From positions 83,341 to 147,340 of IMG/VR virus record IMGVR_UViG_3300020336_000481: a stretch of 64,000 nt of DNA; one strand, written 5' to 3'. This document shows, one piece after another, positions 40,883 to 58,810 of this stretch; within the stretch, counting starts at the first letter, position 1; each line of letters begins with the position of its first letter. The notes below the pieces were generated by a model. That model was not told where the DNA came from. It made no database searches and saw only the letters and a program-made list of their open reading frames with translations. The position numbers and the translations under genes are program-made. Origin of the DNA: a virus (taxonomy: Duplodnaviria > Caudoviricetes).

Positions 40883-41337
40883 TGGGTTGGTATAGCGAGA
40901 TATCTCGAAACATTGGTAAGATACCTGATGCAATTAAATTCTTTGAATCAGAATTACAAGACGCACGGGTTGAGGTAAAACTAAAAGGCAATGTTGAAAA
41001 GGCTGCGGCAAATATGCCCGGCATTGTTGAACACAGGTTTAACCAACTACAAGAGATTGAAGCTATACTCAACTACATGAATATTGAACTTCGACGTTTA
41101 CGTAGTTCGTATTTCAAAAAATATCTTGAAAACTATCAACGAGCTCTGTCAAGCCGTGACGTTGAAAAATACGTTGACGGTGAGGCAGACGTTGTTGATT
41201 ATGAAAAGATTATTAATGAGTTTGCCTTACTTAGAAATAAATGGTTAGGATTATTAAAAGGACTTGATCAAAAACAGTGGCAGATAACAAATGTAGTTAA
41301 ATTAAGAGTTGCTGGAATGGAAGATGCATCAGTCTAA
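40882..41337 (+). CDS. uvsY: Recombination mediator (UvsY-like)
   Basis: Coiled coil; YVDGEADV; KQWQITNVVKLRVAG; near uvsX. Confidence 0.75.
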   Translation: MGWYSEISRNIGKIPDAIKFFESELQDARVEVKLKGNVEKAAANMPGIVEHRFNQLQEIEAILNYMNIELRRLRSSYFKKYLENYQRALSSRDVEKYVDGEADVVDYEKIINEFALLRNKWLGLLKGLDQKQWQITNVVKLRVAGMEDASV

Positions 41338-42163
41338 ATATAATGTAATATCAAGTGCAAATCAAAAATATTGGGAATCGGGTTCAAGGATCAATACGTT
41401 AACATGGGATCTAAATCTTGCTTCATATATTAATATACACACATATGCTGAAGATAAACTAGATACAACGGGGTTTAGCACACGTTGCCATTGGTATGAT
41501 CTATATAATGAATGTCCTGATATATTAGAGTTTAAAGAAAAATACAAAGACGATCCTCATTACAACGGAACAAAAGAAACAGGCTTACAAGCATACAAGT
41601 TCAATGCAATTAAGTTTGCACATAAAACATTTCCAATATTTGATCTAGCAAAAAAATTAAATACAGGTTGGCTTATGTGGGTTGATAGTGATGTTATAAT
41701 TTATAAAACATTAGAAAAAGATTTCTTAAATCAAATTTGTCCTCAAAGTAAAGCAATTACATACTTAGGCAGACCGTCAATGTATAGTGAATGCGGCTTT
41801 ATAGGATTTAATTTAGACATGCCAGAAACTAAAATATTCTTAGAACGTTTTAAAGACTTTTATACTAGCGGCAATCTTAGTAATATTAGAGAAACACACG
41901 ACTCATTTGTATTTGATCAAGTTATGGAATCATTCTCGGACAAAACAAAATTTTATAACTTAAATACATATGCAAAGACTAACAAGCATCCGTTTTTACA
42001 ATCTGTTTTAAAAGAACGTATGACACATGCTAAGGGTTTAGAAAAATTAAGAGTACAAAGAAAATATTTAAAACGTTTTAAGATGCATAAATTTTTAGAA
42101 GAACATGATCGAATGATGGAGTTTCTACATAAAAAATATGGTCATCTTGGCGCTATAAAATAG
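41309..42163 (+). CDS. GT-A fold glycosyltransferase, paralog of 47025-47873
   Basis: AIKFAHK, WVDSD (DxD), ECGFIGFNL, HDSFVF. Confidence 0.6.
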   Translation: MLEWKMHQSKYNVISSANQKYWESGSRINTLTWDLNLASYINIHTYAEDKLDTTGFSTRCHWYDLYNECPDILEFKEKYKDDPHYNGTKETGLQAYKFNAIKFAHKTFPIFDLAKKLNTGWLMWVDSDVIIYKTLEKDFLNQICPQSKAITYLGRPSMYSECGFIGFNLDMPETKIFLERFKDFYTSGNLSNIRETHDSFVFDQVMESFSDKTKFYNLNTYAKTNKHPFLQSVLKERMTHAKGLEKLRVQRKYLKRFKMHKFLEEHDRMMEFLHKKYGHLGAIK

Positions 42164-42175
42164 AAAGAGAGATTA

Positions 42176-42745
42176 ATGTTGCAAGAACATTTAGGCGGAC
42201 ATGCCGGCAAAACACATTTAGATAAAATGGCGATAGCCTGGATTAAAGAAAAATTTTTAGCAAAAAGTTTTTTAGATATAGGATGTGGTCCTGGAGGCAT
42301 GGTCGAATATGCAACTTCGCAAGGCTTAGATGCAGTGGGCATCGATGGCGATCATACTCTTAAAAGATTTGACGATAGTAAATTTATATTACACGACTTT
42401 ACTAACGGTCCTTGTCCATTGTCTAAACAGTATGACTTTGGTTGGAGTTGTGAGTTTGTAGAACATGTATATGAAAAATATATTCCTAACTATATTCAAT
42501 CTTTTCAAAATTGTAAAGTAGTAATGATTACATATGCTCCACCAGGTTGGGTAGGACATCATCATGTTAACTGTCAAGAAGAATATTATTGGATCGATAA
42601 ATTTAAAGGATACGGATTAGAATATAGAAAAGATTGGACTGAAGAATTGCGTAAAATTAGCTCTATGAATACTAAAAAAGGCAACGCTACGAAAAAATCT
42701 TTTGTAAAAAATAGAGGATTAATTTTTCAGAATGTCGCAAGATAA
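42176..42745 (+). CDS. Class I SAM methyltransferase
   Basis: LDIGCGPG, GIDG, EFVEH. Confidence 0.8.
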   Translation: MLQEHLGGHAGKTHLDKMAIAWIKEKFLAKSFLDIGCGPGGMVEYATSQGLDAVGIDGDHTLKRFDDSKFILHDFTNGPCPLSKQYDFGWSCEFVEHVYEKYIPNYIQSFQNCKVVMITYAPPGWVGHHHVNCQEEYYWIDKFKGYGLEYRKDWTEELRKISSMNTKKGNATKKSFVKNRGLIFQNVAR

Positions 42746-43673
42746 AGAACCTTTAGTTTTAGGAATAGAAGAAATGTATAGGAATCATCCTATACCTAAT
42801 CTACCAAATTTTAAAATTGTACCTTTTAACGATCCTTTATTAGAACAAGCAGACATATACATACAAAATAATATTATAGATCAAAAAAGAAAAAAATTTA
42901 AAAAATATTATCAATATATTATTGACAGCGGTAAGCCTTATATATGTGTTGAGTCTGCTGTATTTAGACGCAACATGAAACAGCCTCCACACCCAAAAGC
43001 ATATCATAGATACAGTTGGTTTAGTTATTTTAGAGACGAAGGCTTATATAATAATTTAAATTCAAGTGGAGATCGTTGGAAAAAAATACAACAAGATCAA
43101 AATATAGAAATAAAAGATTGGCGACACGAAGGCGAATATATATTATTGATTATGCAACGCCCTGGAGATAGTAGTTTAAAAAACTTAATGGCTAAGCATG
43201 GCGACTACGAATCTTTTATTACTAATGTATTAAACGAAATAAGAACATATACTGATAGAAAAATACGTATAAGATTACATCCGTTAAGACAAGAAATACA
43301 ACACGAAATCTTAAAAAAAATAAATGCACCTAATATTGAAATTAGTACAAATATACAAGGAGCAGGTTTACTAGAAGGTGGAAATGGATTATACGAAGAC
43401 TTTAAACATGCAAGAGTAGTTGTAGGATTTAATTCAAATGCACTAACAGAAAGTGTATGTGAAGGCATACCTACTTTTAGTTTATGCCCAAGTTCAATGG
43501 CTTGGGAGTGTTCAAACCACGATTTAAAATATATAGAAACTCCTGTTATAGATTTAGATAGGACATACTGGTTGCGTAATTTAGGTTATTGTCAATGGAG
43601 TGAAGAAGAAATAGAAAGGGGCGATCCTTGGTATCATCTCAGATCATTGTATCCAGATAACTTGGCTCGATAA
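42732..43673 (+). CDS. KpsC/KpsS-like (Capsule_synth) GT-B glycosyltransferase
   Basis: MQRPGD (QxxxD), IRLHP, GFNSNALTESVCEGIP. Confidence 0.6.
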   Translation: MSQDKEPLVLGIEEMYRNHPIPNLPNFKIVPFNDPLLEQADIYIQNNIIDQKRKKFKKYYQYIIDSGKPYICVESAVFRRNMKQPPHPKAYHRYSWFSYFRDEGLYNNLNSSGDRWKKIQQDQNIEIKDWRHEGEYILLIMQRPGDSSLKNLMAKHGDYESFITNVLNEIRTYTDRKIRIRLHPLRQEIQHEILKKINAPNIEISTNIQGAGLLEGGNGLYEDFKHARVVVGFNSNALTESVCEGIPTFSLCPSSMAWECSNHDLKYIETPVIDLDRTYWLRNLGYCQWSEEEIERGDPWYHLRSLYPDNLAR

Positions 43674-43681
43674 GTATTACT

Positions 43682-44458
43682 ATGGAACAAGTTGTATTAG
43701 TTACAGGTGGTTTTGACCCCTTACACTCAGGACACATTGAGTACTTTAAAGAAGCAAAAAAACTTGGCACTAAACTAATTGTTGGTGTTAATTCGGACGA
43801 TTGGCTTACACGTAAAAAAGGCAGACCATTTATGCCATTTACAGAACGTGTTGCACTTATAGAAGAAATGAAAGTAGTTGATAAAGTTATCGGCTTTGAT
43901 GATAGCGATGACAGTGCATGTCATGCTATATTCCATACTATGAGTACACACGGATCTGGAACTAAAGTTATCTTTGCTAACGGCGGAGATAGGACTAATA
44001 CTACTACACCTGAATACAAAACATATAGTAGCTATCCACATGTAGATTTTGTATTTGGAGTTGGCGGCGAACATAAAATGAATTCTAGTAGTTGGATACT
44101 AGAGGAATGGAAAGCCCCAAAGACAGAGCGTACATGGGGATATTACAGAGTGATACATGAATACGATAAACACACTAAAGTAAAAGAGTTAGCAGTACCG
44201 CCCGGCGGCAAACTGTCAATGCAACGCCACAAAGAACGTGCAGAGCATTGGTTTATTGCAGAAGGTACAGCAACAGTATATACAATAAACAATAAGACAG
44301 ATATAGAAACATTAGGAGTATATCAACAGCATAAGTCATTACACATACCTGTAGGCACTTGGCATCAACTTGCTAATGAGCATGACACTGATTTAAAATT
44401 AGTAGAAATACAATATGGTACTAAATGCGTGGAGGAAGACATTGAACGAAGATCTTAA
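43682..44458 (+). CDS. Cytidylyltransferase-like domain fused to MPI type II-like cupin
   Basis: TGGFDPLHSGH, NGGDR; ERTWGYY, LSMQRH, EHW, VEIQYG. Confidence 0.8.
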   Translation: MEQVVLVTGGFDPLHSGHIEYFKEAKKLGTKLIVGVNSDDWLTRKKGRPFMPFTERVALIEEMKVVDKVIGFDDSDDSACHAIFHTMSTHGSGTKVIFANGGDRTNTTTPEYKTYSSYPHVDFVFGVGGEHKMNSSSWILEEWKAPKTERTWGYYRVIHEYDKHTKVKELAVPPGGKLSMQRHKERAEHWFIAEGTATVYTINNKTDIETLGVYQQHKSLHIPVGTWHQLANEHDTDLKLVEIQYGTKCVEEDIERRS

Positions 44459-46154
44459 AGTATTTGTAGGATACGATAGTCGAGAAGATATTGCATATCA
44501 AGTATGTAAACACTCATTAGAACAAAATAACAAAAAGAAAAATATAAAAATTGAACCTATCGCGTTGAGTCAATTACAAGAAGATTTAATCTATACAAGA
44601 GATGTAGACCCGTTAGCAAGTACCGAGTTTACGTTCAGCAGATTCTTAGTTCCGTATCTTATGGAATATAAAGGCTGGGCAGTGTTTTGTGATTGTGATT
44701 TTTTATGGTTAGATGATATACAAAAATTATTTGATAAAATGGATCCACGGTATGCAGTTATGTGTGTACACCATGACTATAATCCTCATGGTAGAGTAAA
44801 AATGGACGGTAAACAACAAACTATTTACCCACGAAAAAATTGGAGTAGTTTAGTTTTATGGAACTGTGGACATCCAAGTAACCAACAAGTAACAAAAGAA
44901 TTAGTTAATAATCCTGAAACAACAGGACAATACATGCATAGATTTAGTTGGCTCAAAGATGAAGAAATTGGACAACTATCACATGAATGGAACTGGTTAA
45001 CTGATTGGTATAAAGAACCACAAGATGGCAAACCAAGAGCATTACATTATACAGAAGGTGGTCCTTGGTTTAAAGATTATGAAAGATGTGATTACGCAGT
45101 TGACTGGTTACTTGCAGAAAAAAGTTACATTAGTCACAAGCGTAAAGGTGAAAAGAAAGATAAAAAGCTCGGACCGTTTGAAGGGTTTAAACCAGAGTTA
45201 AATGAATATATTCAAAAAGCAATAAATTATAGTATCGATCCTAAAGGACTTTATTTAAAAAATAGTTCAATAGAGGATCTAAAGGAGTGTGTTAAGAAAA
45301 TGGGAGATAAGGTAGCAGCAATTGATAGTAGTGGCCCTGGCGGCATCGACTATGCAACAAAAGGACATGAGTACGATCCGTTACTTGTAGATTTTATATC
45401 AGGCAGTGGTGGAATATTAAGTTCATGGGATAGAGAAAAGCCTACAAACAACACACTAGTTATTAGAGGTTTAGGCGGCGGAAGTCAAAAAGCATTACGT
45501 AATTGTAAAGAAAATGATAGAGAATTTTTTGCAATTGATACAGGATACTTTGGCAACGGCAAACTTAAAAAAATACACAGAGTCACAAGAAATAATTTAC
45601 AAGAACTTGGGCCTATTAAAGTCCGTGATTTAGATCGTGCTAGAGCAATGGGTTACAAATATAGAAAGTTTAAAAAAGAAGGAACTAAAATTTTAATCTG
45701 TCCTCCAAGTATAAAAGTAATGAAGTTTTTTGATCAAGGTACTCCTGAAGAATGGGTAGAAAAAACTCTTAAACAAATTAAAGTTTTTACTAATAGACCA
45801 ATTGAAATACGTATGAAGCCTACAAGAACAGACAGGGTAACAATTAATACTATTCAAGATGCATTAGAAGATGATGTATTTTGCTTAGTAACTTATAATA
45901 GCATTGCAGCATTAGAAGCATTAATGGTAGGTAAACCCGCAATAGCATTAGGTCCTAATGCGGCACAACAAATATGTGAAACAGAGTTAAGAAACATTGA
46001 CACTCCTAAAATTCCTAGTAGGGAAGAAATGGATGCACTAATGGCATATCTTGCGTACTGTCAATTTACTCAACCTGAAATGCGTTCAGGCCATGCATGG
46101 AGAATTATAAATGAAAATAGTCAGTTACCTGAGTGGCATCCCGGTAAAGAATAA
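44442..46154 (+). CDS. Two-domain glycosyltransferase: GT8/CDI-like GT-A plus KpsC/S-like GT-B
   Basis: STEFTFSRFLVP, DCDFL, YPRKNWSS, HYTEGGPW; C-terminal VTYNSIAALEALMVGKP; TTG start after GGAGG. Confidence 0.7.
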   Translation: MNEDLKVFVGYDSREDIAYQVCKHSLEQNNKKKNIKIEPIALSQLQEDLIYTRDVDPLASTEFTFSRFLVPYLMEYKGWAVFCDCDFLWLDDIQKLFDKMDPRYAVMCVHHDYNPHGRVKMDGKQQTIYPRKNWSSLVLWNCGHPSNQQVTKELVNNPETTGQYMHRFSWLKDEEIGQLSHEWNWLTDWYKEPQDGKPRALHYTEGGPWFKDYERCDYAVDWLLAEKSYISHKRKGEKKDKKLGPFEGFKPELNEYIQKAINYSIDPKGLYLKNSSIEDLKECVKKMGDKVAAIDSSGPGGIDYATKGHEYDPLLVDFISGSGGILSSWDREKPTNNTLVIRGLGGGSQKALRNCKENDREFFAIDTGYFGNGKLKKIHRVTRNNLQELGPIKVRDLDRARAMGYKYRKFKKEGTKILICPPSIKVMKFFDQGTPEEWVEKTLKQIKVFTNRPIEIRMKPTRTDRVTINTIQDALEDDVFCLVTYNSIAALEALMVGKPAIALGPNAAQQICETELRNIDTPKIPSREEMDALMAYLAYCQFTQPEMRSGHAWRIINENSQLPEWHPGKE

Positions 46155-47028
46155 TAATCTACAAAAACCTGCTATACTTAATAATTTTATACAAGGGTGT
46201 AATGTTGTAGGAGACCAGGGTATTCCGTATGTAGGATTTGACATGCAAGAATGTGATGTTGGAGTAATACAAGGATTTACACATGTTGACGGTAAGCATC
46301 TTCCTCATTTACAATTACGATCAAAAGTAATTCAACATCAAATAAGTCGTGGCAAACATACTGTTATTGCAGATAGTAATTTATTCTTATATGCAGATCC
46401 TGCCCAACAACATAACTATTTAAGATTTAGTTTTGATGGAGTCTTTCCTAATACAGGTTTTTACTTTGATAAAGATATTGATGCTGAGCGTTGGAAAAAG
46501 ATATCTAAAAATTTAGGTATTCCTCTCAAAGACTATAGACAACAAGGCAATCATATCTTAATTTGTTTACAACGTAACGGTGGATGGAGTATGCGTGGTT
46601 TACCTGTAATGGATTGGTTAAGAAATACTATACAAGAGATTAGAAAATATAGTGACAGACCAATCATTGTTAGGGGACATCCTGGCGATAAAAAGAAAGA
46701 AATTTATCTAAAAATAAATGAGCCTAATGTACATGTAAGTGACTTTAGAAGACATATTACACAAGACTTAGATAATGCATGGGCAACTGTAACTTATAAT
46801 TCTAGCCCAGGTGTTGCTAGTTTAATTGAAGGTATACCTGTGTTTATGACTGACCCAGATCCTAATTACAGTCAATATTCAGAAGTTGCTAATCATAATT
46901 TTAAAAGATTAGAAGATCCTAAAATGTATAATAGACAAGAATGGATTGAAAAGATATCAATGTGTCATTGGAATTTTCAAGAACTTCAAAGCGGAGAAGC
47001 TTGGAGTTTTATGCGTCAATACGTTTAG
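46111..47028 (+). CDS. KpsC/KpsS-like GT-B glycosyltransferase
   Basis: ILICLQR, VRGHP, VTYNSSPGVASLIEGIP. Confidence 0.55.
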   Translation: MKIVSYLSGIPVKNNNLQKPAILNNFIQGCNVVGDQGIPYVGFDMQECDVGVIQGFTHVDGKHLPHLQLRSKVIQHQISRGKHTVIADSNLFLYADPAQQHNYLRFSFDGVFPNTGFYFDKDIDAERWKKISKNLGIPLKDYRQQGNHILICLQRNGGWSMRGLPVMDWLRNTIQEIRKYSDRPIIVRGHPGDKKKEIYLKINEPNVHVSDFRRHITQDLDNAWATVTYNSSPGVASLIEGIPVFMTDPDPNYSQYSEVANHNFKRLEDPKMYNRQEWIEKISMCHWNFQELQSGEAWSFMRQYV

Positions 47029-47873
47029 CCTTGCCAATATTGCTCAGCTCTACCTTGCATTAAATCTTTAGCACGGCTTTTGCCTTCTTCTTTACGTACA
47101 CCTTTCATATGATCAAAGTAGTCACCTAAGATACTATTAATGAAAGGATGTCCTCCTCCACCAGTCTTTGCAGTTCTTACATAAATGCTTTCAGAATAGT
47201 CATGTTCTGCATTAAACTCTTTATATTTCTTAAGTACTTCTCCAAATACATAACTATCATGCCATTCGTCTAAAGTAAACATTCCGTTATCAGCATCTTC
47301 GTACATACGTTCAAACTCTTTTAAGAATTCATATGCAACAGGATGATTTAGATTGAATCCGTAAAACCCGCACTCTGGCCAAGTCTGTGATCCTTTACCT
47401 CTACCAACGTAAGTAATATATTTGTTGTCTGGTAATAGTTCTTTAAACTTATCATAGGTAACAATACTGTGAACAAAAATATCAGCGTCCATCCATACTA
47501 CCCAATCACTACCATTTTGCTTTGCACGTTCTACACCGTCAAATACAGCATAAGTTTTATTAGCAAATCTAATAGCGTCCCATTTAAACTTCTTATGATG
47601 ATCTCTTGGACGTCTTTCAGGAAACGGACAAATACCATTTGCTTTAGGTACGTCTTTCCAACGATCCTTAAATGCATTTAATTTTGGTAATACTTCTTTT
47701 GAATTTAATATTGTAATTTGTTCTGAATTAGGATTTACAGGTTCGCAGTCTTCTGCATATACAATTAATTTTACGTTGTCATCTATTTCTTTTGCAAAAC
47801 TATCTAAAAATCTCTGTCCGTATAAATCTAATCCCGGCTTATGGAATGTGGTAACCACAGTTATTGGTTTCAT
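47025..47873 (-). CDS. GT-A fold glycosyltransferase, paralog of 41309-42163
   Basis: AIRFANK, WMDAD, ECGFYGFNL, WHDSYVF. Confidence 0.6.
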   Translation of the reverse strand: MKPITVVTTFHKPGLDLYGQRFLDSFAKEIDDNVKLIVYAEDCEPVNPNSEQITILNSKEVLPKLNAFKDRWKDVPKANGICPFPERRPRDHHKKFKWDAIRFANKTYAVFDGVERAKQNGSDWVVWMDADIFVHSIVTYDKFKELLPDNKYITYVGRGKGSQTWPECGFYGFNLNHPVAYEFLKEFERMYEDADNGMFTLDEWHDSYVFGEVLKKYKEFNAEHDYSESIYVRTAKTGGGGHPFINSILGDYFDHMKGVRKEEGKSRAKDLMQGRAEQYWQG

Positions 47874-47914
47874 ATTGTTTCCTTTGTAAATATACTACTA
47901 GGAGTATTTAACAG

Positions 47915-48757
47915 ATGATATTCAGTTTATGGACACATTATGGCGCACTTAATAGCAAACCAGTTTTTGAAGCTTTTGCAAATAGTCTTCTTAATAATGG
48001 GCATAGTGTTCTTTATAACAATGACACTGCCGATGTTAATGTTATTTGGAGCGTGTTGTTTAACGGAAGAATGGCTGGAAACAAAGCAGTCTGGGAACAA
48101 CATAAACCAACAATAGTATTAGAAGTTGGCGGCATACAACGAGGAACAACATGGAAGGTGGGACTAAATGGTATCAACCGTGATGGGGATTATTTTTCTA
48201 CTGGCAATAATAACGATCGTGCTAGGCTTTTGGGATTAGAATTAAAACCTTGGCGCACTGATGGTGAGTATATTTTAATAGCAGGACAACATGATAAAAG
48301 TTTACAATGGCAAAATATGCCTAGTATGAGTAATTGGTTTTTAGATACATATGATACTATACGACAACATACTGATCGTCCTATTATCTTTAGACCGCAT
48401 CCACGTTGCAGATTAGAACATATTGAACGTGGGTTACGCAATGTAATTAGGCACGAGCCGCAACATATTAATGGTACTTACGATGATTTTGATATGGTGT
48501 TTGATAACGTGCATTGTACTATTAGTTACAGTAGCAATCCTGGGATTCATTCTATCATCAACGGTGTTCCTGCTTTTGTTGGTCCTAGCAGTCTTGCTTA
48601 TCCTGTAGCAAATGACATAAATCACTTAGAGGATATTGAAGAACTACACACAGGTGCTAGGCAACAATGGCTAAATGATTATGCATGGACTGAATTTACT
48701 GTGGAAGAAATTTCACAGGGACTACCACTTTCTCTCTTGACTTCTGCGTTAATTTAA
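47915..48757 (+). CDS. KpsC/KpsS-like GT-B glycosyltransferase
   Basis: ILIAGQ, FRPHP, SYSSNPGIHSIINGVP. Confidence 0.55.
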   Translation: MIFSLWTHYGALNSKPVFEAFANSLLNNGHSVLYNNDTADVNVIWSVLFNGRMAGNKAVWEQHKPTIVLEVGGIQRGTTWKVGLNGINRDGDYFSTGNNNDRARLLGLELKPWRTDGEYILIAGQHDKSLQWQNMPSMSNWFLDTYDTIRQHTDRPIIFRPHPRCRLEHIERGLRNVIRHEPQHINGTYDDFDMVFDNVHCTISYSSNPGIHSIINGVPAFVGPSSLAYPVANDINHLEDIEELHTGARQQWLNDYAWTEFTVEEISQGLPLSLLTSALI

Positions 48758-48765
48758 AGTATAAT
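48737..48765 (+). promoter_or_regulatory. sigma70 promoter, leaderless geometry
   Basis: TTGACT-17 nt-TATAAT-6 nt-ATG(48772). Confidence 0.75.
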
Positions 48766-48771
48766 GTACAC

Positions 48772-49983
48772 ATGCTTACTAACACTCATACTATAGAAGA
48801 TTGCCTTGAAGTAGCTTGTGGACTTACAACAAGTCCTGCTATTAAACTACAACAAGACGATACACATATTATTTCATCACTTGCTAGGCAAGTATTTAAA
48901 GGCACAGGCTTAACAGATAAACAGTTAGATCTTAGTGTTGAAAAACTTAAAACATATGCAGATCAATTATTTGAATTAGGATATGATTTAAATCAAGCAC
49001 AGTCTAATTTACGTATTCCTTTACGTAAGATTGATAGATCTAAATGGATTAAACTTTTGCAAAAAGAAGACCTTTTGTATATTGGTATTAGATTTACTTT
49101 TAACAAAAAGTATCTAAAATACATCGAGCCATTAAATCAAAAAATAAAAAATAAACACTATGACAGAGCAAGAAAAACACATTACTTTCCTTACAGCGAA
49201 AGAAACTTATTTGATGTAATGTCATGTTTTGAAAAAAGCAACTTTGAAGTAGAAGAACAATTATTAACAGTTTACAAGGAAATTTTAAACATGAGCGAAA
49301 ACAGTAAAGACTATGTCCCTGGTGTATACGGATTTAGTTTAAAAAATTTAAATGACAATGCAATAGATTATATGATAAGCTCTGTAGGTCAGCCGTCAGC
49401 TAAAACATTACACATTTATAAAGATAGAGATCACTTGTTTGGATTAGATCATTTTGATTCAGACGACTTAGAAGAAGCACTGAATAATTTATTACCACTA
49501 ACACGTAAAGTAATTTTAAGAGAAACAAATCAAATTTTAATTGATAGTAAAGAATATAATTTTGAAGAAGTAGCATCAACACTTGTTGAGTTGCAAAGAT
49601 TCCCGTTATTAATTATATTGCCAAAAGAAGATCCATTATATCATTTAGAATATGCACACGAATGTTTTAGCAAAGTAATATCAGATGAAAGTACGTCTGT
49701 GTTATTTAGATTAGAAAATAAAGGTGAAGGTTTAGACTTTAATCAATACATAAAAGATAATAATTTAAACAAACCTCTTGACAATACAACAAAAATAGTG
49801 TATATTAGTAACAATAAACTACCTAAAACTTTGTTTAAAGTAGACTGGCAACCTGTCGCTACTTTACAATTAGATAGTGAAAGACTAGGAACTTATATTA
49901 GTACATATGTTGATGCCCATGATTTGGTAATACATTATGACACTGATGTAACTCCTTTTAACCGGAAGGTGCAAAAAATTTGA
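48772..49983 (+). CDS. Hypothetical protein upstream of UvsW
   Basis: 403 aa ORF; weak HARP-like segment. Confidence 0.55.
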   Translation: MLTNTHTIEDCLEVACGLTTSPAIKLQQDDTHIISSLARQVFKGTGLTDKQLDLSVEKLKTYADQLFELGYDLNQAQSNLRIPLRKIDRSKWIKLLQKEDLLYIGIRFTFNKKYLKYIEPLNQKIKNKHYDRARKTHYFPYSERNLFDVMSCFEKSNFEVEEQLLTVYKEILNMSENSKDYVPGVYGFSLKNLNDNAIDYMISSVGQPSAKTLHIYKDRDHLFGLDHFDSDDLEEALNNLLPLTRKVILRETNQILIDSKEYNFEEVASTLVELQRFPLLIILPKEDPLYHLEYAHECFSKVISDESTSVLFRLENKGEGLDFNQYIKDNNLNKPLDNTTKIVYISNNKLPKTLFKVDWQPVATLQLDSERLGTYISTYVDAHDLVIHYDTDVTPFNRKVQKI

Positions 49984-51443
49984 ACAGTTGTAGGTTAATA
50001 ATTCAGGATGAAGTAAACATTAAACTAGAAGGACTAGAGGTTGACGTACGACGAAAAATTGCTAATGCATTAAAGTTTGAAGTTCCGTATGCACGTTATA
50101 TGCCACAATATAAACTAGGACGTTGGGATGGCAAAGTTGCTTTCTTTGGTATTGGTGGCACTGGTTATGTTAATCATCTTGATACTGTTGTTGACATTCT
50201 ACAAAAAAATAATATTGAAATAACTGATATTGTAGATCATAGACAACATGTGGATTTACAATTTAACTCAGTTACAGAACGCTACTGGGCTGATCAAGGA
50301 GTACGTTGGCCTAAAGGTCATCCAGCAGAAGGCGAAGAGATTATTCTGCGTGACTATCAAGTAGAATCAATTAATAACTTTCTTAAGCACCCACAGAGCT
50401 TACAAGAAATTGCAACAGGCGCAGGTAAAACAATTACTACTGCAACACTTTCCCATATAACAGAAACATATGGGCGTAGTTTAATTGTTGTGCCTAACAA
50501 ATCATTAGTTACACAAACAGAAGAAGATTATATAAATTGTGGTCTTGATGTAGGTGTATACTTTGGCGACAGAAAAGAGCTAGGTAAGACTCATACTATA
50601 TGCACTTGGCAAAGTTTGAATATACTTGACAAGAAGCATAAGGATGGCTCAGCAGTATTATCACTAGCAGAGTTTCTAGATGGTGTAAGCACAATTATTG
50701 TTGACGAAGTACACCAAGCTAAAGCAGAAGTACTTAAAAACTTACTAACACGTAATTTAAAAAATGCTCCAATACGTTGGGGACTAACTGGTACTATACC
50801 AAAAGAAAGTTTTGAATTTGAAAGTATTCATGCAAGTCTAGGCCCAGTAATTGGAAACATTACTGCAAAAGAATTACAAGACAAAGGTGTACTATCACAA
50901 TGTCATGTTAATATTTGTCAACTAATAGATACAGTTGAACATAGAAACTATCAAGAAGAATTAAAGTATCTTGTTACGGATAAAAAAAGAATTGAGTATA
51001 TAGGAAAACTTTTAAACAATGTAAAACAAACAGGCAATACATTAATACTAGTAGACAGAATATCTGCAGGTGAGTTATTAGCAGAGCTTATACCTGGATC
51101 AACATTTGTTAAAGGAGATGTAAAACTAAAAGATAGAAAAGAAGCATATGATGAAATCAACGAAGGGACTAACCATGTAGTAATTGCTACATACGGAGTC
51201 GCGGCTGTTGGTATTAATATACCGCGTATTTTTAATCTTGTTCTCATTGAGCCTGGGAAAAGTTTTGTCCGGGTAATACAAAGTATAGGCAGAGGCGTAA
51301 GAAAGGCAAAAGACAAAGACTTCGTTCAAATTTGGGACTTAACATCAACGTGTAAGTTTGCGAAGCGACATCTAACTCAACGTAAAAAGTTTTACAAAGA
51401 GGCAGAGTATCCATTTACAATAGAAAAAATAAATTGGAATTAA
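49980..51443 (+). CDS. uvsW: SF2 DNA helicase (UvsW-like)
   Basis: LRDYQ, ATGAGKT, VDEVH, LTGT, QSIGRGVR. Confidence 0.88.
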   Translation: MNSCRLIIQDEVNIKLEGLEVDVRRKIANALKFEVPYARYMPQYKLGRWDGKVAFFGIGGTGYVNHLDTVVDILQKNNIEITDIVDHRQHVDLQFNSVTERYWADQGVRWPKGHPAEGEEIILRDYQVESINNFLKHPQSLQEIATGAGKTITTATLSHITETYGRSLIVVPNKSLVTQTEEDYINCGLDVGVYFGDRKELGKTHTICTWQSLNILDKKHKDGSAVLSLAEFLDGVSTIIVDEVHQAKAEVLKNLLTRNLKNAPIRWGLTGTIPKESFEFESIHASLGPVIGNITAKELQDKGVLSQCHVNICQLIDTVEHRNYQEELKYLVTDKKRIEYIGKLLNNVKQTGNTLILVDRISAGELLAELIPGSTFVKGDVKLKDRKEAYDEINEGTNHVVIATYGVAAVGINIPRIFNLVLIEPGKSFVRVIQSIGRGVRKAKDKDFVQIWDLTSTCKFAKRHLTQRKKFYKEAEYPFTIEKINWN

Positions 51444-51444
51444 T

Positions 51445-51951
51445 ATGAGGATATTAACGTTAGAAAATAAATGCTTTTCTTTAAATAATCTTCCAGAAGA
51501 AATAACTGAAGATGTTAGATTTAGTGTACTAGATAATTCGGATGCAAATGATCCAGACTTCTTTTTTATGCCTTTAATTTTTGTAGAGAGCTTTAACAGT
51601 CCTGCAATGGTTATGGAGATTAAAGGACAAGAGATAACAATGCCTATTGATTGGAGTATAGCAATAGGAGATCAATGGAGTGGCGGCGACTGTGAAGTGT
51701 TACCACTTACAAGTATAAATGATAGAGGCTTTGAAGCTTTATTGTTTAATCCACTGTCCAGCTATAAGTTGGATTTTGCGGATATTAAGATAACTAATTT
51801 TTATAATGATGTTAAATGGTATTTCCCTAAAATGAAACCAGGACATCTTTTGTCTGTGCCTATCACCGAAGGTAATAAACCCGAGTGTGCATTTTTTGTT
51901 AAAGATATAAGCAGACAAAGCGAACTAATTGACTATTCTAAACTGTTATAA
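51445..51951 (+). CDS. Hypothetical beta-rich protein
   Basis: 168 aa ORF directly after uvsW. Confidence 0.55.
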   Translation: MRILTLENKCFSLNNLPEEITEDVRFSVLDNSDANDPDFFFMPLIFVESFNSPAMVMEIKGQEITMPIDWSIAIGDQWSGGDCEVLPLTSINDRGFEALLFNPLSSYKLDFADIKITNFYNDVKWYFPKMKPGHLLSVPITEGNKPECAFFVKDISRQSELIDYSKLL

Positions 51952-51964
51952 CAAGGAGTAAACA

Positions 51965-52321
51965 ATGACATTAAAAGCAGGAAAGATTTGGGGTCAGACG
52001 GAACTGATCCATGCAAACGGAGTATTAGAATTTCACCGTATTGAATATAAAGGTGGGTTCAAATGTTCAGAACACGAGCATAAATTTAAATGGAACGGAT
52101 TCTTTGTTGAATCAGGAAAGATGCTTGTTCGAGTTTGGCAAGATGACCAAGAAGGTCTTGTTGACGAAACAATTTTATTACCGGGTGACTTTATGCAAGT
52201 TAAGCCTGGAAAGGTACATCAGTTTGAAGGTTTAGAAGACGGTGTAGCATTTGAACTATACTGGGCTGAATTTAACCATGACGATATTGTTAGACGTACA
52301 GTAGGTACTTCGGTAAAATAA
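51965..52321 (+). CDS. Cupin-fold protein
   Basis: KIWG, CSEHEH, VKPGKVHQF; AAGGAG RBS. Confidence 0.7.
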   Translation: MTLKAGKIWGQTELIHANGVLEFHRIEYKGGFKCSEHEHKFKWNGFFVESGKMLVRVWQDDQEGLVDETILLPGDFMQVKPGKVHQFEGLEDGVAFELYWAEFNHDDIVRRTVGTSVK

Positions 52322-52861
52322 ATGCTAACATCAGGATGGTATTTAAAACAACTTCAAGCATTACATAACGATCCAAAAAGGCCACAAGGCTTTGGAGGCA
52401 AGGTAAAAAAGTTAGGTGTATTAGAAAGTTGTATGCTAGACTGGTCAGTTACTGAAGCCTTAGACTACGGTTGTGGTAAAGGACTTATGCTACAGCATTT
52501 ACAACAAAAGTATCCTAGCATACAATTTACAGGATATGATCCTGCTGTAGAAAAATACGAGACTATGCCTGTAAGAAACTTTCAAATGTTATACAGTGTT
52601 GATGTATTAGAACATATAGAACCAGAGTACTTAGACGGTGTTCTTGATAACATGAATCATTTATCAAACGAATATCTTTGGCTACGTATTGATACATTGC
52701 CTGCACGTAAAAGTTTACCAGACGGACGGAATGCACACTTAATATTAGAAACTCCAGACTGGTGGATTGATAAGTTAAATATTTTTAATGGAGATATAAT
52801 TTATCAAAATTATAAGAAAGGAAAATTTGATGTTGCAATCAGAAAAACTAATTCCAGGTGA
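52322..52861 (+). CDS. Class I SAM methyltransferase
   Basis: LDYGCGKG, GYDP, DVLEH. Confidence 0.8.
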   Translation: MLTSGWYLKQLQALHNDPKRPQGFGGKVKKLGVLESCMLDWSVTEALDYGCGKGLMLQHLQQKYPSIQFTGYDPAVEKYETMPVRNFQMLYSVDVLEHIEPEYLDGVLDNMNHLSNEYLWLRIDTLPARKSLPDGRNAHLILETPDWWIDKLNIFNGDIIYQNYKKGKFDVAIRKTNSR

Positions 52862-53102
52862 AGCACTGATATACGAAAGAGCTAACGGTGTTGTATATGC
52901 ACGATATAGAGATGCTCCACATAATAAAATACCAAGATGGGTAATAGGTGGTGATCCGGGTGCTGTTGCAAGAGCACAAGGCAAACTATTAGACTACTCT
53001 GAATGGCAAGATCTATGTGACCTAACAGAACAAAACACTACATTAAAAAAAATAATGAATAAATTAATAACAACTTATTATATAATGAAGGAAGAAAAAT
53101 GA
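52827..53102 (+). CDS. Hypothetical protein
   Basis: 91 aa ORF, ATGA-coupled to kdsA. Confidence 0.5.
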   Translation: MMLQSEKLIPGEALIYERANGVVYARYRDAPHNKIPRWVIGGDPGAVARAQGKLLDYSEWQDLCDLTEQNTTLKKIMNKLITTYYIMKEEK

Positions 53103-53881
53103 GGATTATCGCAGGACCGTGTCAACACGAAACACTAGAAAAAAGTTTAGAAATTGCTATGGAGTGTCAAGGAGTTTGTGACAAATACGGCATCGACTAT
53201 TATTTTAAAGCATCATACGACAAAGCTAATAGGTCTAATCTAAAAGGAATTAGAGGACAAGGCTTAGCAACTACAATGGAAGCATTTGCTGAATTAAAAG
53301 AACGCATTCCTGGCTTAAAAATTATTACTGATGTTCACAACCAAAATGAAATATTAAAGATAGGTGCATACTATAATGACATTGTTGATGCACTTCAAAT
53401 ACCTGCATTTTTGTGTAGACAAACTGACTTAGTACAAGCGGCTTGTAAAACAAATAAAATTGTCAATATTAAAAAAGGCCAGTTTCTAGCACCGTGGGAT
53501 GTAGAAAACATATTGTCAAAAACAGAAGGTGCTAAAGAAGTATGGATAACTGAGAGAGGAACAAGTTTTGGATATAATACACTTGTTGTTGACTTTACCG
53601 GCCTGGACTACATGCTTAATAATATTAATGCTCCTGTGGTGCTTGATGCCACACACGCAGTTCAGAAACCAGGCGGCAATGGAAGTAGTAGCGGCGGCAA
53701 CCGCGATTACGTTCCTGGCTTATGTCGTGCAGGTAGTGCTTTGGGTATTACAAATTTCTTTTTAGAAGTACACCACGACCCAGACAATGCTCCAAGTGAT
53801 GGACCTAATGCATTACACTTAACAGACTTTAAAAAAGTAGTAAAGGAAATACATGAATACAGCTATACTAATACCCGCTAG
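53099..53881 (+). CDS. kdsA: Kdo-8-phosphate synthase
   Basis: IAGPC, KASYDKANRS, QIPAFLCRQTDL, NIKKGQF, ERGTSFGY, DATHAVQ, PSDG. Confidence 0.95.
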   Translation: MRIIAGPCQHETLEKSLEIAMECQGVCDKYGIDYYFKASYDKANRSNLKGIRGQGLATTMEAFAELKERIPGLKIITDVHNQNEILKIGAYYNDIVDALQIPAFLCRQTDLVQAACKTNKIVNIKKGQFLAPWDVENILSKTEGAKEVWITERGTSFGYNTLVVDFTGLDYMLNNINAPVVLDATHAVQKPGGNGSSSGGNRDYVPGLCRAGSALGITNFFLEVHHDPDNAPSDGPNALHLTDFKKVVKEIHEYSYTNTR

Positions 53882-54545
53882 ATACGGTAGCACACGCTTC
53901 GATGGAAAGCCACTATGTATGTTAGATGGTGTTCCTATGATAAAACGTGTGTATGACGCTTGTACTGCGTCTAAGATACCAACATACATACTTACTGATG
54001 ATATGCGTATCTTTAATATGTTTGGTGCAGACAAGTGTTGGATAGAAGAAGAACATGTTGCACCATATGCTAATGGTACTGAACGATGCTCTGGTGCTAT
54101 TACAAAGTGGCATGAACTAAAACAATACAACCAATTTGTTAATGTACAAGGTGATATGCCAGATGTTACACTGCAAATGATTGAACGTTGTGTAGAATGG
54201 TTACAGTATTATCCTATTAGCACAGTGTACACACAAATGCCTAAAGAAATGCAGAACGATCCTAACAGTGTAAAAATGGTTAGAGCGGGCGATCAAGCAT
54301 TATGGTTTGGTAGAGGTTTGACTGGATATGGCGAATGGCATTTGGGAATATACGGTTATAAAAGAAATGCATTAGAATTATATAATAGTCTTGAAATTAC
54401 TATTGAAGAAGAAACGGAAAAATTAGAACAACTAAGATGGTTAAAAAGTGGTTGGAATTTAGGCTGTTCGAGTGTATACTTTAAAGGTACTGAGATAAAT
54501 TCACCAGAGGATGTAGATATATGGCACAACCAAAACTCCCATTAA
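53853..54545 (+). CDS. kdsB: CMP-Kdo synthetase
   Basis: IPARYGSTRFDGKPL, GTER, VNVQGD, HLGIYGY, EKLEQLRWL. Confidence 0.93.
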   Translation: MNTAILIPARYGSTRFDGKPLCMLDGVPMIKRVYDACTASKIPTYILTDDMRIFNMFGADKCWIEEEHVAPYANGTERCSGAITKWHELKQYNQFVNVQGDMPDVTLQMIERCVEWLQYYPISTVYTQMPKEMQNDPNSVKMVRAGDQALWFGRGLTGYGEWHLGIYGYKRNALELYNSLEITIEEETEKLEQLRWLKSGWNLGCSSVYFKGTEINSPEDVDIWHNQNSH

Positions 54546-54979
54546 AAGACATACTTGCAGCCATTGATATGGGTGCAAAAGATGTATGGAATGAAATCAC
54601 TGAAGAAGAACGTAAGCAGATCAGCTTTTGGTTACTAAACAGATATGTAAGTAGTGTACAAGGTAATAGAGAAAAACAAGAATTAGCAGTATTCAAAACA
54701 AACGAATACTACAATAAAAATTATATGAATGTTAGTAAACATCAAACTTTGTTATGGCAGTTACTTTGCATCTCAGGTAATACTGGTAAGATTGAATTCC
54801 ATAAATGGATTGGACACAAAAAGAAAAACGGAGATATTGCAGACAAAGGTGCAAAACTACTAACAAGTTTATTTCCTAATATGAAACAAGAAGAGGCAGA
54901 TATACTTGCTAGAATATCTACAAAAAAAGAACTCAAACAATTGGCTGAAGAACATGGAGTTGAAAATTTCAAAATCTGA
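54521..54979 (+). CDS. Hypothetical, possibly clamp-loader small subunit (gp62-like)
   Basis: Helical; WLLNRYVS and FHKWI resemble gp62-type proteins. Confidence 0.4.
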   Translation: MAQPKLPLKDILAAIDMGAKDVWNEITEEERKQISFWLLNRYVSSVQGNREKQELAVFKTNEYYNKNYMNVSKHQTLLWQLLCISGNTGKIEFHKWIGHKKKNGDIADKGAKLLTSLFPNMKQEEADILARISTKKELKQLAEEHGVENFKI

Positions 54980-55658
54980 TAAACCATATATGTGTGAATA
55001 CTGCGGAGCCTCTTTTACTAGAGAAAAAACTTTGGCAGTTCATATGTGTGAGCCAAAACGTAGAAAATTACAAAAGAATGAGAAACGTGTACAACTAGGT
55101 ATGTATGCATTCAATCAGTTCTATAAACTTAGTGCAGGTGCAAAGAAAAACAAAACATACGAAGAGTTTTGTAAGAGTCCATACTACAACGCATTTGTAA
55201 AGTTTGGAAGTTTTGTATCAAATGTAAAACCTTTATACCCAGAGAAGTATATTGATTATGTTGTTACTTCAAGAGTTAAACTTGATCATTGGTGCAGAGA
55301 CGAGATGTACGAGAAGTATGCAACGGAGTTAATTTTAAAAGAGGGTGTTGAAACGGCATTAGAGCGTAGTGTACAAACTATGTTAGAATGGGCTAGTGAT
55401 AACGAGCCAGCACCATGGAATCATTATTTTAAATATGTAAGTTTAAATAGAGCAGTATGGCATATTAAAGATGGAAAGATATCACCCTGGCTTGTACTTA
55501 ATTGTAAAAGCGGTAAAGAAATGTTAAGTAAATTTAATAACGAACAATTAGAAATGATATATCATATTGTGAATCCTGAACATTGGGCATTACGTTTTAA
55601 ACGACAACATCGTGATATAGAACTTGTAAAAGAAATTGTTAAAGAGAGTAATTTATAA
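54906..55658 (+). CDS. Zinc-finger protein (true start probably about 54955)
   Basis: KPYMCEYCGASFTREKTLAVHMC. Confidence 0.6.
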   Translation: MLEYLQKKNSNNWLKNMELKISKSDKPYMCEYCGASFTREKTLAVHMCEPKRRKLQKNEKRVQLGMYAFNQFYKLSAGAKKNKTYEEFCKSPYYNAFVKFGSFVSNVKPLYPEKYIDYVVTSRVKLDHWCRDEMYEKYATELILKEGVETALERSVQTMLEWASDNEPAPWNHYFKYVSLNRAVWHIKDGKISPWLVLNCKSGKEMLSKFNNEQLEMIYHIVNPEHWALRFKRQHRDIELVKEIVKESNL

Positions 55659-56218
55659 TGCCTGATATTGATATTGATTTTGCAGATAGAGAAGCTATAC
55701 TAAGTAAACTTACACACAGAGTTGCAAAACTTGATACAGGTAAGAAACATAATACTGGTGTATATGTAAACGAAATTCCACACAATCCTGTAGATAAACT
55801 ATCTACACTTGACTACAAGATAGCAGAAGAACGCGGATATTTTAAACTAGATTTTTTAAATGTGTCTATATACAGAGATGTAAAAGATGAGGCACATCTA
55901 CAAACTCTATTAGAAAGGAAACCAATATGGCAACTACTGGAGCACAAAGACTTCGTCGACAAAGTATTTCATCTATCAGGGCACGACACACTCTTAAAAC
56001 AATTGAAGCCTACTTCGGTCGAGCAATTGGCTGCAACATTAGCAGTGATACGTCCGGCCAAGAGATATCTAGCAAACAAAGGTTGGAGCGAGATATTAAA
56101 TTGGGTATGGGTAAAACCAACAAACGGTGAATACTACTTTAAGAAAGCACACGCTGTATCATATGCCATGGCGTGTGTAGTACATATGAACTTATTGTGT
56201 GAACAATTACAAGAATAA
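55658..56218 (+). CDS. Miniature DnaE (C-family polymerase) catalytic-core protein
   Basis: PDIDIDF, HNTGV, KLDFL, IRP, FKKAHAVSY in DnaE order. Confidence 0.75.
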   Translation: MPDIDIDFADREAILSKLTHRVAKLDTGKKHNTGVYVNEIPHNPVDKLSTLDYKIAEERGYFKLDFLNVSIYRDVKDEAHLQTLLERKPIWQLLEHKDFVDKVFHLSGHDTLLKQLKPTSVEQLAATLAVIRPAKRYLANKGWSEILNWVWVKPTNGEYYFKKAHAVSYAMACVVHMNLLCEQLQE

Positions 56219-58552: not shown

Positions 58553-58810
58553 ATGGTAGAAAGGATATTAACAATGAAGAACGAATTTCAAGTAGGAATA
58601 TTTGAAGTACTCAAAAAATTACTAAAAGGCAATAGTGCTTTCTTAGCAGTTATATATACGCTAGGACATATTATTATTGCTCTTAATGTAGTATATTGGA
58701 TAACTGGAGCCAGCCTGTTTGAAGCAGGATTAGTTGCTCTTCTTGAACCTGCTATTAATGGAGTTTGGTTTTATATTTTACATAGTTTGTGGAGAAAGTC
58801 TAACGCATGA
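58553..58810 (+). CDS. Small membrane protein (DUF2061-like)
   Basis: Two hydrophobic segments; EP..N..FY..H..W. Confidence 0.55.
   Translation: MVERILTMKNEFQVGIFEVLKKLLKGNSAFLAVIYTLGHIIIALNVVYWITGASLFEAGLVALLEPAINGVWFYILHSLWRKSNA

Follow-up and report, generated by a model that had tools for sequence, protein, structure and literature searches.

Positions 41309–54545 of the window analysed here, a 64-kb stretch of DNA covering bases 83341–147340 at the 3′ end of the 147,340-base IMG/VR viral record IMGVR_UViG_3300020336_000481, carry a cassette of sugar-transferase genes and two genes for the synthesis of 3-deoxy-D-manno-octulosonate activated with cytidine monophosphate (CMP-Kdo). With a probability of roughly 0.55, we read the region as a self-contained module with which a marine jumbo phage would build a glycan in the cytoplasm, combining donor supply, Kdo transfer and elaboration of the product. 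The Kdo-transferase-like cassette comprises seven sugar-transferase domains: four KpsC-like domains of the GT-B glycosyltransferase fold, two GT6-like domains of the GT-A fold and one GT8-like domain. The reading starts from gene identities, predicted fold, motifs, paralogy and conserved gene order, and from these we infer donor, chemistry and product. The open reading frames (ORFs) that carry the argument are as follows.

42732–43673, plus strand (o42732): D-type KpsC-like GT-B domain, candidate retaining β-Kdo transferase (Q142-R-P-G-D146, H183-P184, E74).
44415–46154, plus strand (o44415): two-domain protein, a GT8-like GT-A domain (residues ~14–240, DxD = DCD) joined to a P-type KpsC-like domain (residues ~340–579, PPSIK...KP).
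46111–47028, plus strand (o46111): G-type KpsC-like GT-B domain (QRNGG, HP, D74), with Gln and HP kept and no Asp nucleophile.
47915–48757, plus strand (o47915): S-type KpsC-like GT-B domain (QHDKS, HP, E74), with Ser in place of the Asp nucleophile.
53099–53881, plus strand (o53099): KdsA, 3-deoxy-8-phosphooctulonate (Kdo-8-P) synthase, by the NCBIfam equivalogs NF003543 and TIGR01362.
53853–54545, plus strand (o53853): divergent KdsB-like CMP-Kdo synthetase (PF02348, 7.9e-19; NCBIfam KdsB models below cut-off).

The four GT-B domains (o42732, o46111, o47915 and residues ~340–579 of o44415) are paralogues, with pairwise BLASTP E-values from 1e-35 to 3e-9. They share nine columns, namely I137, L138, R181, P184, S235, G245, P247, E293 and G297; numbering here and below follows o42732 in a 127-sequence alignment of its family. 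Judged by sequence similarity, they belong to a very large family for which no Pfam, NCBIfam or CAZy name was found. A word-indexed search returned 1086 matches, and an exhaustive profile search gave 4885 representatives of clusters formed at 50% identity, with E-values below 1e-30 for 500. The Capsule_synth model PF05159 matched no window protein even at E 10; among the 127 family relatives it was weakly matched by 12 (best E 9.4e-5), and DUF6716 was matched by 16.

An AlphaFold model of o42732 computed from the same alignment reached a mean predicted local distance difference test score (pLDDT) of 95 and a predicted template modelling score of 0.92. In a Foldseek search of this model against the PDB, the first 18 structures listed (ranks 1–27) were those of KpsC, WbbB and KrkA, with E-values from 1.9e-9 to 3e-5, and generic GT-B enzymes appeared later. 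Among the listed structures, only KpsC (GT107), WbbB (GT99) and KrkA (GT140) matched the predicted fold over both domains, and the model has the modified GT-B architecture particular to these three families. The β-glucosyltransferase of phage T4 (β-GT), which had been proposed as a comparison, was not among the listed fold matches of the o42732 family. At the profile level, the best PDB sequences were KpsC (E 0.015) and WbbB (E 0.024), and the family consensus aligned with the QVESD, HP and S..G.E..G.P motifs of KpsC. A KpsC/WbbB-like character of all four domains is thus supported by the predicted fold and by the profile.

In the known enzymes, the Gln of the QXXXD motif binds the Kdo carboxylate, the HP motif binds CMP and provides the general acid, and the base is a Glu of the N-terminal domain (Glu66 in KpsC, Glu102 in KrkA and the catalytic Glu of WbbB). 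Conserved across the three Kdo-transferase families GT99, GT107 and GT140 are the QXXXD residues Asp and Gln, together with the HP motif (PMC12887879). The catalytic triad of retaining β-Kdo transferases consists of the Asp nucleophile, the His and the Glu base (PMC10148158), and the Asp of QXXXD has been described as "absolutely conserved" (PMC12887879, PMC10148158). The phage family retains most of this set. In the alignment, Q142 was present in 124 of 127 sequences, R181 in 125, H183 in 121 and P184 in 120, and S235, G245, P247 and E293 were nearly invariant (E293 and G245 each in at least 120 of 127). Position 74, located in the N-domain and a candidate for the base, was acidic throughout the D-, S- and G-types, being Asp in the G-type and otherwise Glu or Asp. 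Position 146 was variable, being Asp in 57 sequences, Ser in 42 and Gly in 20. Within the window, the motif reads QRPGD in o42732, QRNGG in o46111, QHDKS in o47915 and PPSIK in the C-terminal half of o44415. Gln and HP are present in the first three; the o44415 half, with P and KP at the corresponding places, has lost Gln, Asp and His. By sequence, o42732 alone among the four domains carries the complete retaining Kdo-transferase signature of QxxxD, HP and an N-domain Glu, the last as a candidate base.

A preliminary description of this stretch, made from the sequence alone, had named QxxxD and HP as motifs of CMP-Kdo-dependent β-Kdo transferases and had noted the intact copy in o42732; the literature concurs on the former, and the copy is indeed the sole intact one. 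Its broader label of four KpsC/KpsS-like transferase domains stands for fold and profile and needs narrowing for catalysis, as a single domain has the Asp nucleophile and the o44415 half lacks all three motif residues.

The divergent subtypes do not look like decayed copies. Across 113 related loci the order was fixed: D came first, next P with its GT8 fusion, then G, in some loci another P, and S last, with 33 QDHP, 34 QGHP, 37 QSHP and about 38 P-type domains. In the clade, the D-type gene regularly lies directly after uvsY or a methyltransferase gene. Every subtype showed conserved residues of its own, for instance W149 and D216 in the S-type and W147 and D223 in the G-type; no alternative conserved acid was seen in the motif loop of either subtype in the alignment. 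The fixed order and the subtype-specific residues argue for four maintained, specialised functions.

The genes for donor synthesis are adjacent. The product of o53099 passed both KdsA equivalog cut-offs, scoring 328.7 bits with NF003543 (cut-off 242) and 316 with TIGR01362 (cut-off 314), and the NCBIfam models of 3-deoxy-D-arabino-heptulosonate 7-phosphate (DAHP) synthase scored far lower. Five of the six NCBIfam matches of o53853 were KdsB models (best E 1.5e-44, 152 bits against cut-offs of 193 or higher); the sixth was PseF (E 2.6e-4), and the PF02348 threshold was passed. By these matches, the phage encodes the committed and the activating steps of CMP-Kdo synthesis. NeuB and WaaA were not found in the 147 kb contig, which leaves KdsA and KdsB as the sole ulosonate pathway seen and the KpsC-like family as the sole candidate CMP-sugar transferase. 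CheckV put the completeness of the record at 42%, corresponding to a phage genome of ~350 kb, and absences from the contig, here and below, are therefore weak evidence. CMP-Kdo itself is a labile donor.

Under our reading, KdsA would condense host arabinose-5-phosphate with phosphoenolpyruvate, Kdo would be freed by a host phosphatase or an unseen phage phosphatase, and o53853 would convert Kdo to CMP-Kdo. The o42732 enzyme would then transfer Kdo in the manner of KpsC, WbbB and KrkA, giving a β-Kdo linkage: Gln142 would hold the carboxylate, His183 of the HP motif would assist the departure of CMP, Asp146 of QRPGD would form the covalent Kdo adduct, and E74, the N-domain Glu, would activate the acceptor hydroxyl. 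For the G-type o46111 and the S-type o47915, a CMP-ulosonic acid is most likely still the donor, and transfer would proceed by direct displacement or some other altered chemistry. The P-type domain of o44415 probably has no catalytic role and may position the acceptor for the fused GT8-like domain.

Several observations weigh against this reading. None of the four GT-B domains had a sequence match in Pfam, NCBIfam, PHROGs or the PDB, no Pfam or NCBIfam threshold being reached, and the sequence-level ties to KpsC and WbbB are marginal (E 0.015–0.03). The Asp nucleophile is missing from o46111, o47915 and the C-terminal half of o44415. Fold and motifs do not fix the donor, since the related family GT118 transfers pseudaminic acid (Pse) from CMP-Pse (PMC12887879). 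The KdsB scores of o53853 lie under every curated cut-off. KdsC and KdsD, already reported missing from the window, were not found in the whole 147 kb contig either, including by searches for SIS and HAD domains. The module lacks a late-type promoter motif and lies among replication genes, which does not favour a virion acceptor. Finally, kdsA occurs without the KpsC-like family in 38 of the 80 kdsA loci compared (group B, among L006–L085). In the opposite direction, Pelagibacter phage Mosig and Caulobacter phage CcrColossus carry the cassette, yet tblastn found no KdsA in their complete genomes, and a further contig lineage (L119–122) carries it with no kdsA within 10 kb.

KdsA relatives were collected from 136 viral contigs, and the best 80 loci (67–85% identical) were compared, 37 of which had the full 10 kb of upstream flank. 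In 23 of these 37 the gene order was syntenic with the window, from o43682 (a nucleotidyltransferase-cupin fusion) or o44415 through uvsW to kdsA and kdsB, and longer loci centred on o42732 orthologues showed the complete order from gp32 to kdsB. Three loci (L113, L115 and L116) form a distant branch of the clade, with a rearranged cassette, two D-type genes, and the methyltransferase and one GT-A gene inverted. In group B, the KpsC-like family was also absent from the rest of the five records for which this extends, one of them a complete 157 kb genome. The group-B block holds kdsA (70–85% identical), often no recognisable kdsB, a ~290-aa protein with only a weak GT8 hint, and a eukaryotic-type phosphomannomutase (PMM)-like HAD protein; examples are L006:9974–13011 and L077:10001–14504. 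L077 and four other group-B loci also carry a small cupin and a separate HIGH-type nucleotidyltransferase. By sequence, the L077-type set would amount to an isomerase-mutase-nucleotidyltransferase route to a nucleoside diphosphate (NDP)-mannose or NDP-heptose beside CMP-Kdo synthesis.

Outside the clade, the Mosig cassette has two methyltransferases, a GT-A enzyme like o47025, unfused adjacent GT8-like and P-type genes, a sulfotransferase and another member of the family. In CcrColossus, gp127–129 are located between tail proteins and the lysis genes, and the 42.7 kb phage MW202713 carries a KpsC-like family member beside structural genes. ORF261 of Synechococcus phage S-SCSM2R is two genes away from kdsA and kdsB. 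The idea that the D-type subtype tracks kdsA exclusively was rejected, because the L119–122 contigs, with no kdsA within 10 kb, carry a D-type gene (query P0221); a 52 kb contig of the distant branch, with two D-type genes, also had no kdsA. No viral loci were found for two divergent D-type query proteins. The co-occurrence with kdsAB proposed as a check is therefore complete within the clade, whereas outside it cassette and kdsA are separable both ways. So the conserved unit, as far as gene content tells, is the transferase cassette, with kdsAB as an accessory of some lineages.

This separability leads to an alternative that we regard as unlikely, namely that there is no functional link: the KpsC-like family would use another CMP-ulosonic acid, or none in the case of the Asp-less types, and kdsAB would be merely co-cargo of a variable region. 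It would account for the separation in both directions, for the three domains without a nucleophile and for the pairing of kdsA with a GT8-like protein in group B and S-SCSM2R, and GT118 shows that the fold can use CMP-Pse (PMC12887879). However, the kdsA-less phages infect Gram-negative bacteria, which make CMP-Kdo of their own, so that separability is expected under the Kdo-module reading too. The pattern fits a Gram-negative host supplying CMP-Kdo with large phages adding their own, and is equally expected without any link. Against the lack of a link also stand the near invariance of Gln (carboxylate) and HP (CMP) in three subtypes, the failure to find another ulosonate synthase in the contig, and the linkage kept throughout the clade. 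The preliminary claim that the phage makes its own CMP-Kdo for a glycan thus holds for the committed and activating steps; the link from donor to transferases is plausible only, given that kdsAB and cassette part company outside the clade.

The remaining enzymes of the module, and further tailoring candidates of the window, are as follows.

41309–42163, plus strand (o41309): GT-A enzyme, GT6-like fold family, DxD = DSD; paralogue of o47025 (BLASTP E 1e-32).
42176–42745, plus strand (o42176): class I S-adenosylmethionine (SAM)-dependent methyltransferase, candidate sugar O-methylase (Methyltransf_23/11).
43682–44458, plus strand (o43682): HIGH-type nucleotidyltransferase (HldE domain II/TagD-like) fused to a cupin of the phosphomannose isomerase (PMI) type (PF01467, 1.1e-15; PF01050, 2.2e-22).
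47025–47873, minus strand (o47025): GT-A enzyme, closest folds GT6 retaining α-Gal/GalNAc transferases, DxD = DAD (AlphaFold2 and Foldseek).
51965–52321, plus strand (o51965): small metal-type cupin, 118 aa (Cupin_2; phrog_7851, the PHROG common with the o43682 cupin).
52322–52861, plus strand (o52322): another class I SAM methyltransferase, weakly matching a Pse-associated methylase, in part of the clade only.
58807–60297, plus strand (o58807): NodU/TobZ-type O-carbamoyltransferase (Carbam_trans_N, 6.5e-38; Carbam_trans_C, 1.1e-50).

The AlphaFold2 model of o47025 (pLDDT 91.5) had α3GalT, ABO GTA/GTB and BoGT6a as its top Foldseek matches (E ~1e-7). A profile of the GT-A pair found no match among PDB sequences. 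Homologues of o47025 numbered 3107, almost none of them with a Pfam match, and the protein is 30% identical to Mosig_189. Its paralogue o41309 is peculiar to the window, with no separate counterpart in 33 loci that carry an o42732 homologue. The N-terminal half of o44415 matched phrog_28018 (4e-50), and its Pfam GT8 match (E 0.067) was below threshold; its structural neighbours in the Atlas had TM-scores of 0.85–0.90, with GT8 on 57% of the members of the top cluster. Identity of this half was 50% to S-SCSM2R ORF261, 45% to Mosig_188 and 34% to CcrColossus gp129, and in Mosig the two halves are separate adjacent genes (188 and 187). A GT-A fold of the GT6/GT8 type with a DxD motif (DAD, DSD and DCD in the translations) is therefore found in all three proteins.

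The transferase half of o43682 matched rfaE_dom_II (1.1e-18), phrog_7878, annotated as heptose-1-phosphate adenylyltransferase (1.9e-29), and cytidylyltransferases in the PDB. Its cupin half belongs to phrog_7851 and scored 79.9 bits against 23.6 with PF01050. A cupin query against PDB sequences gave weak quercetinase matches only. On these matches, o43682 is a candidate supplier of an NDP-heptose or NDP-mannose donor. Counterparts of the methyltransferase o42176 were present in most syntenic loci at 52–63% identity. In the module reading, the o43682 fusion would supply a second nucleotide sugar of the heptose or mannose type, the three DxD GT-A domains would add hexoses, and the methyltransferases would cap them. 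UvsY (phrog_231), UvsX and gp32 lie upstream of the cassette, and UvsW, recognised by its domain match, lies within the 41309–54545 stretch.

The catalogue drawn up in the preliminary description from its own ORF list, with which the ORFs of the window agree, was borne out by these comparisons: adjacent kdsA and kdsB, four paralogous GT-B domains with common motifs, two paralogous GT-A enzymes, a CDI/GT8-like domain, a cytidylyltransferase-cupin fusion (CTP_transf_like with a MannoseP_isomer cupin), two methyltransferases of the class I SAM type and a cassette flanked by uvsY and uvsW. In the fold comparison that it had suggested, KpsC, WbbB and KrkA were the best matches among those listed.

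Membership of the small cupin o51965 in the module is uncertain. No other gene of the module is as well conserved. A search with it gave 1725 clusters formed at 90% identity, of which some hold over 1000 sequences, and the 120 listed were 78–99% identical to it. The name "mannose-6-phosphate isomerase-like" is given to it by some sources, and in five group-B loci the cupin directly follows kdsB. A role as a substitute for KdsD was rejected, since this marine-phage cupin is far commoner than kdsA and has no specific link to it. The carbamoyltransferase o58807 lies between a primase (57437–58441) and a DnaB-like helicase (60301–61737) and may tailor the same glycan further or serve something else. 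In all clade members, the last transferase gene and uvsW are separated by the gene for a protein with no family match (403 aa, 48772–49983); this protein is fast-evolving, with 30–44% identity against 73–90% for the adjoining UvsW. A 186-aa protein (55658–56218) matched phrog_11778, a phage DNA polymerase (3e-59), and has at its very start the PDIDIDF motif known from DnaE-type polymerases. Together with the adjacent gene at 54906–55658, which encodes a C2H2-like zinc finger, it is syntenic with kdsAB throughout the clade.

The module looks soluble throughout: hydrophobic segments strong enough to span a membrane were seen in none of its proteins. For the acceptor of the glycan, a phage or virion protein has somewhat less than an even chance. 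The self-contained and soluble nature of the module points this way, as does its combination of many transferases, donor synthesis and methylases, which resembles the virion glycosylation systems of giant viruses, and so do the family members beside structural genes in CcrColossus and MW202713. No threonine-rich gene adjoins the cassette, the nearest Ser/Thr-rich ORF lying ~50 kb upstream on the contig. This 1171-aa ORF (contig positions 33060–36572, minus strand, ~47–50 kb upstream of the window start) reaches 70% Ser plus Thr over 40 residues; as the most mucin-like protein on the contig, it is a candidate acceptor if the target is a fibre protein. The gp32-like single-strand-binding protein (38528–39511) has a ~60-residue low-complexity C-terminal tail rich in Pro, Thr, Ala and Glu, unusual for gp32, which may serve as a flexible linker or, more speculatively, be itself a substrate for glycosylation.

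A host inner-membrane glycolipid, either the lipopolysaccharide (LPS) inner core or a capsule-type anchor, is a possible but doubtful acceptor. On this tentative alternative, kdsA and kdsB would be auxiliary metabolic genes that sustain host LPS or capsule Kdo, and the soluble transferases would modify lipid-linked intermediates of the inner core or the capsule anchor on the cytoplasmic side of the inner membrane. The host would export the altered glycolipid and its receptors would be changed, giving superinfection exclusion or less adsorption to debris. All characterised relatives (KpsC/KpsS, WbbB and KrkA) use lipid-linked acceptors and are soluble or peripheral (PMC10148158, PMC9587256, PMC12887879), and the report on S-SCSM2R reads its kdsAB as cell-wall-modification genes (PMC12801897). 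Kdo and heptose are both inner-core sugars of LPS, the o43682 nucleotidyltransferase is heptose-type, and the Gram-negative hosts of the cassette phages, very different as they are, have lipid A-Kdo in common. However, the domain scans of the module showed no flippase, ABC transporter, ligase, polyprenyl-phosphate transferase or membrane segment; seven transferase domains and tailoring enzymes would be a large outlay for a lytic phage altering the surface of a doomed cell; and the location of family members beside structural genes in CcrColossus and MW202713 does not suit an envelope target.

The timing of expression bears on both acceptors. Virion glycosylation or host-surface remodelling had been proposed in the preliminary description on the strength of late promoters at 43671, 47887 and 47905, and these promoters were not supported. 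The canonical T4 late promoter TATAAATA had no copy in the 64 kb window, against 11.3 ± 3.3 expected, and the sites cited read GATAAGTA (43671) and TAAATATA (47887), both near-misses. Contig-wide, the 7-mer most enriched in the 60 bases upstream of genes was ATAAATA, present at 22 of 123 genes where 0.7 were expected and mostly in the form GATAAATA. Judged by this enrichment, the motif, with G replacing the first T, is probably the late promoter of the clade. (G)ATAAATA had 17 copies in the window and none between 35925 and 56603. Sigma-70 and terminator scans gave no more sites than shuffles. With no late-type motif across it, the module looks like an early or middle replication block, a position that suits envelope remodelling.

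Contigs from two metatranscriptomic libraries of one study matched parts of o42732, o43682/o44415, o46111, o47915 and kdsB at 95–100% identity, most at 99% or more, and gp32, UvsX and UvsY were matched more deeply than the cassette in the same libraries. Such libraries may contain DNA, so that the matches speak only weakly for transcription, and stretches left uncovered carry no meaning.

DNA had been left as a possible acceptor on account of the neighbouring uvsY and uvsW, and we consider it improbable. Kdo, heptose or a hexose would in this case be placed on a hydroxymethylated base of the phage genome, evading host nucleases. There is precedent, in that phage GT94 appears to install Kdo on 5-hydroxymethylcytosine and another pathway with a cytidylyltransferase installs heptose (bioRxiv 10.1101/2023.12.21.572611), and the module does lie between uvsY and uvsW, near gp32, UvsX, the primase and the helicase. 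Nevertheless, the known DNA enzymes are T4 β-GT-like, whereas the phage domains best matched Kdo transferases that serve glycolipid pathways. The two module methyltransferases are small-molecule types and not DNA C5 types. Searches of the 147 kb contig and of ten clade fragments turned up no ThyA-type hydroxymethylase, no TET/JBP dioxygenase and no C5 cytosine methyltransferase, weak evidence as each of these records is incomplete. Acceptors other than protein, glycolipid and DNA are, taken together, unlikely.

The source virus, a marine jumbo phage, is uncultured. The UvsW helicases of Sinorhizobium phage Phosso, Agrobacterium phage Atu_ph07 and the PA5oct group share no more than 55% identity with its own, and megablast against 50,697 phage records returned no nucleotide-level relative of the region. 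For a 6 kb stretch of the region, 99–100% of sampled words were recovered in marine metagenomes from at least eight studies dated 2013–2025.

Kdo is regarded as a hallmark sugar of Gram-negative envelopes, and to our knowledge only three enzyme families make β-Kdo linkages, all of them bacterial and all acting on glycolipids. The phage family resembles KpsC/KpsS (GT107, PF05159) and the N-terminal modules of WbbB (GT99) and KrkA (GT140) in fold, in the Gln and HP motifs and, for o42732, in the Asp. Unlike these families, it has no significant sequence similarity to them, resides on phage or viral contigs, and comes in four subtypes, three without the Asp and one fused to a GT8-like domain; no export genes lie near the phage cassette. 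On the strength of the models, it would be a fourth sequence family with the retaining Kdo-transferase fold, phage-borne and with natural nucleophile-less subtypes.

Chloroviruses (e.g. PBCV-1 A075L), other giant viruses and some mycobacteriophages encode virion glycosylation machineries. These likewise bring together soluble transferases, enzymes that make the sugar nucleotides and methyltransferases for sugars, which are encoded jointly and work in the cytoplasm with no host export machinery; their enzyme families and sugars differ. The o43682 fusion recalls type II PMI-GDP-mannose pyrophosphorylases (ManC/AlgA/XanB), in which a PMI-type cupin and a sugar-1-phosphate nucleotidyltransferase catalyse non-consecutive steps. 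It departs from them in having the transferase half N-terminal and of the HIGH-motif fold PF01467, not GlmU-like, so that it does not belong with these enzymes. The same half resembles HldE domain II in matching heptose-1-phosphate adenylyltransferase models. No kinase or mutase was found in the window, and no PMM in the 147 kb contig; in group B a PMM-like mutase adjoins kdsA.

In the literature, the sole report found of phage kdsA with kdsB concerns S-SCSM2R (December 2025), which presented them as the first such genes in a cyanophage, read them as host cell-wall-modification genes and proposed no Kdo transferase (PMC12801897). The S-SCSM2R genes are likewise adjacent and are 39% and 28% identical to those of the window, with ORF261 50% identical to the N-terminal half of o44415. 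In contrast to the window, none of the four proteins beside kdsAB there to which the search extended (ORFs 261–263 and KdsB) is KpsC-like. For phage or virus Kdo transferases, the literature yielded bacterial enzymology papers and the DNA-glycosylation preprint only. The GT94 enzymes of that preprint (bioRxiv 10.1101/2023.12.21.572611) share with the present system a phage enzyme with a Kdo donor and, in related clusters, a heptose cytidylyltransferase; they differ in being T4 β-GT-like and in having a cytosine methyltransferase and a TET-type dioxygenase encoded beside them, and nothing of this kind was found here.

At its fullest, the protein-acceptor idea becomes a four-subtype line made of an Asp-nucleophile enzyme, two nucleophile-less enzymes with new chemistry and a pseudo-enzyme-GT8 fusion. 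Fed with CMP-Kdo and NDP-heptose or NDP-mannose, it would coat virion proteins with a methylated glycan resembling the LPS inner core. We put this forward as a speculative and rather unlikely scheme.

The findings point to a fourth large family with the rare Kdo-transferase fold, carried by abundant ocean phages. If active, it would add a new CAZy-level family, would provide natural Asp-to-Ser and Asp-to-Gly variants for the study of the double-displacement mechanism, and would suggest that an unrecognised glycan is made during infection of major marine bacteria. If the virion-coat reading is true, a virus would wear a coat of bacterial-type acidic sugar. Because the cassette occurs in the culturable phages CcrColossus and its relatives and Mosig, and kdsAB alone in S-SCSM2R, the question can be put to the test at the bench.

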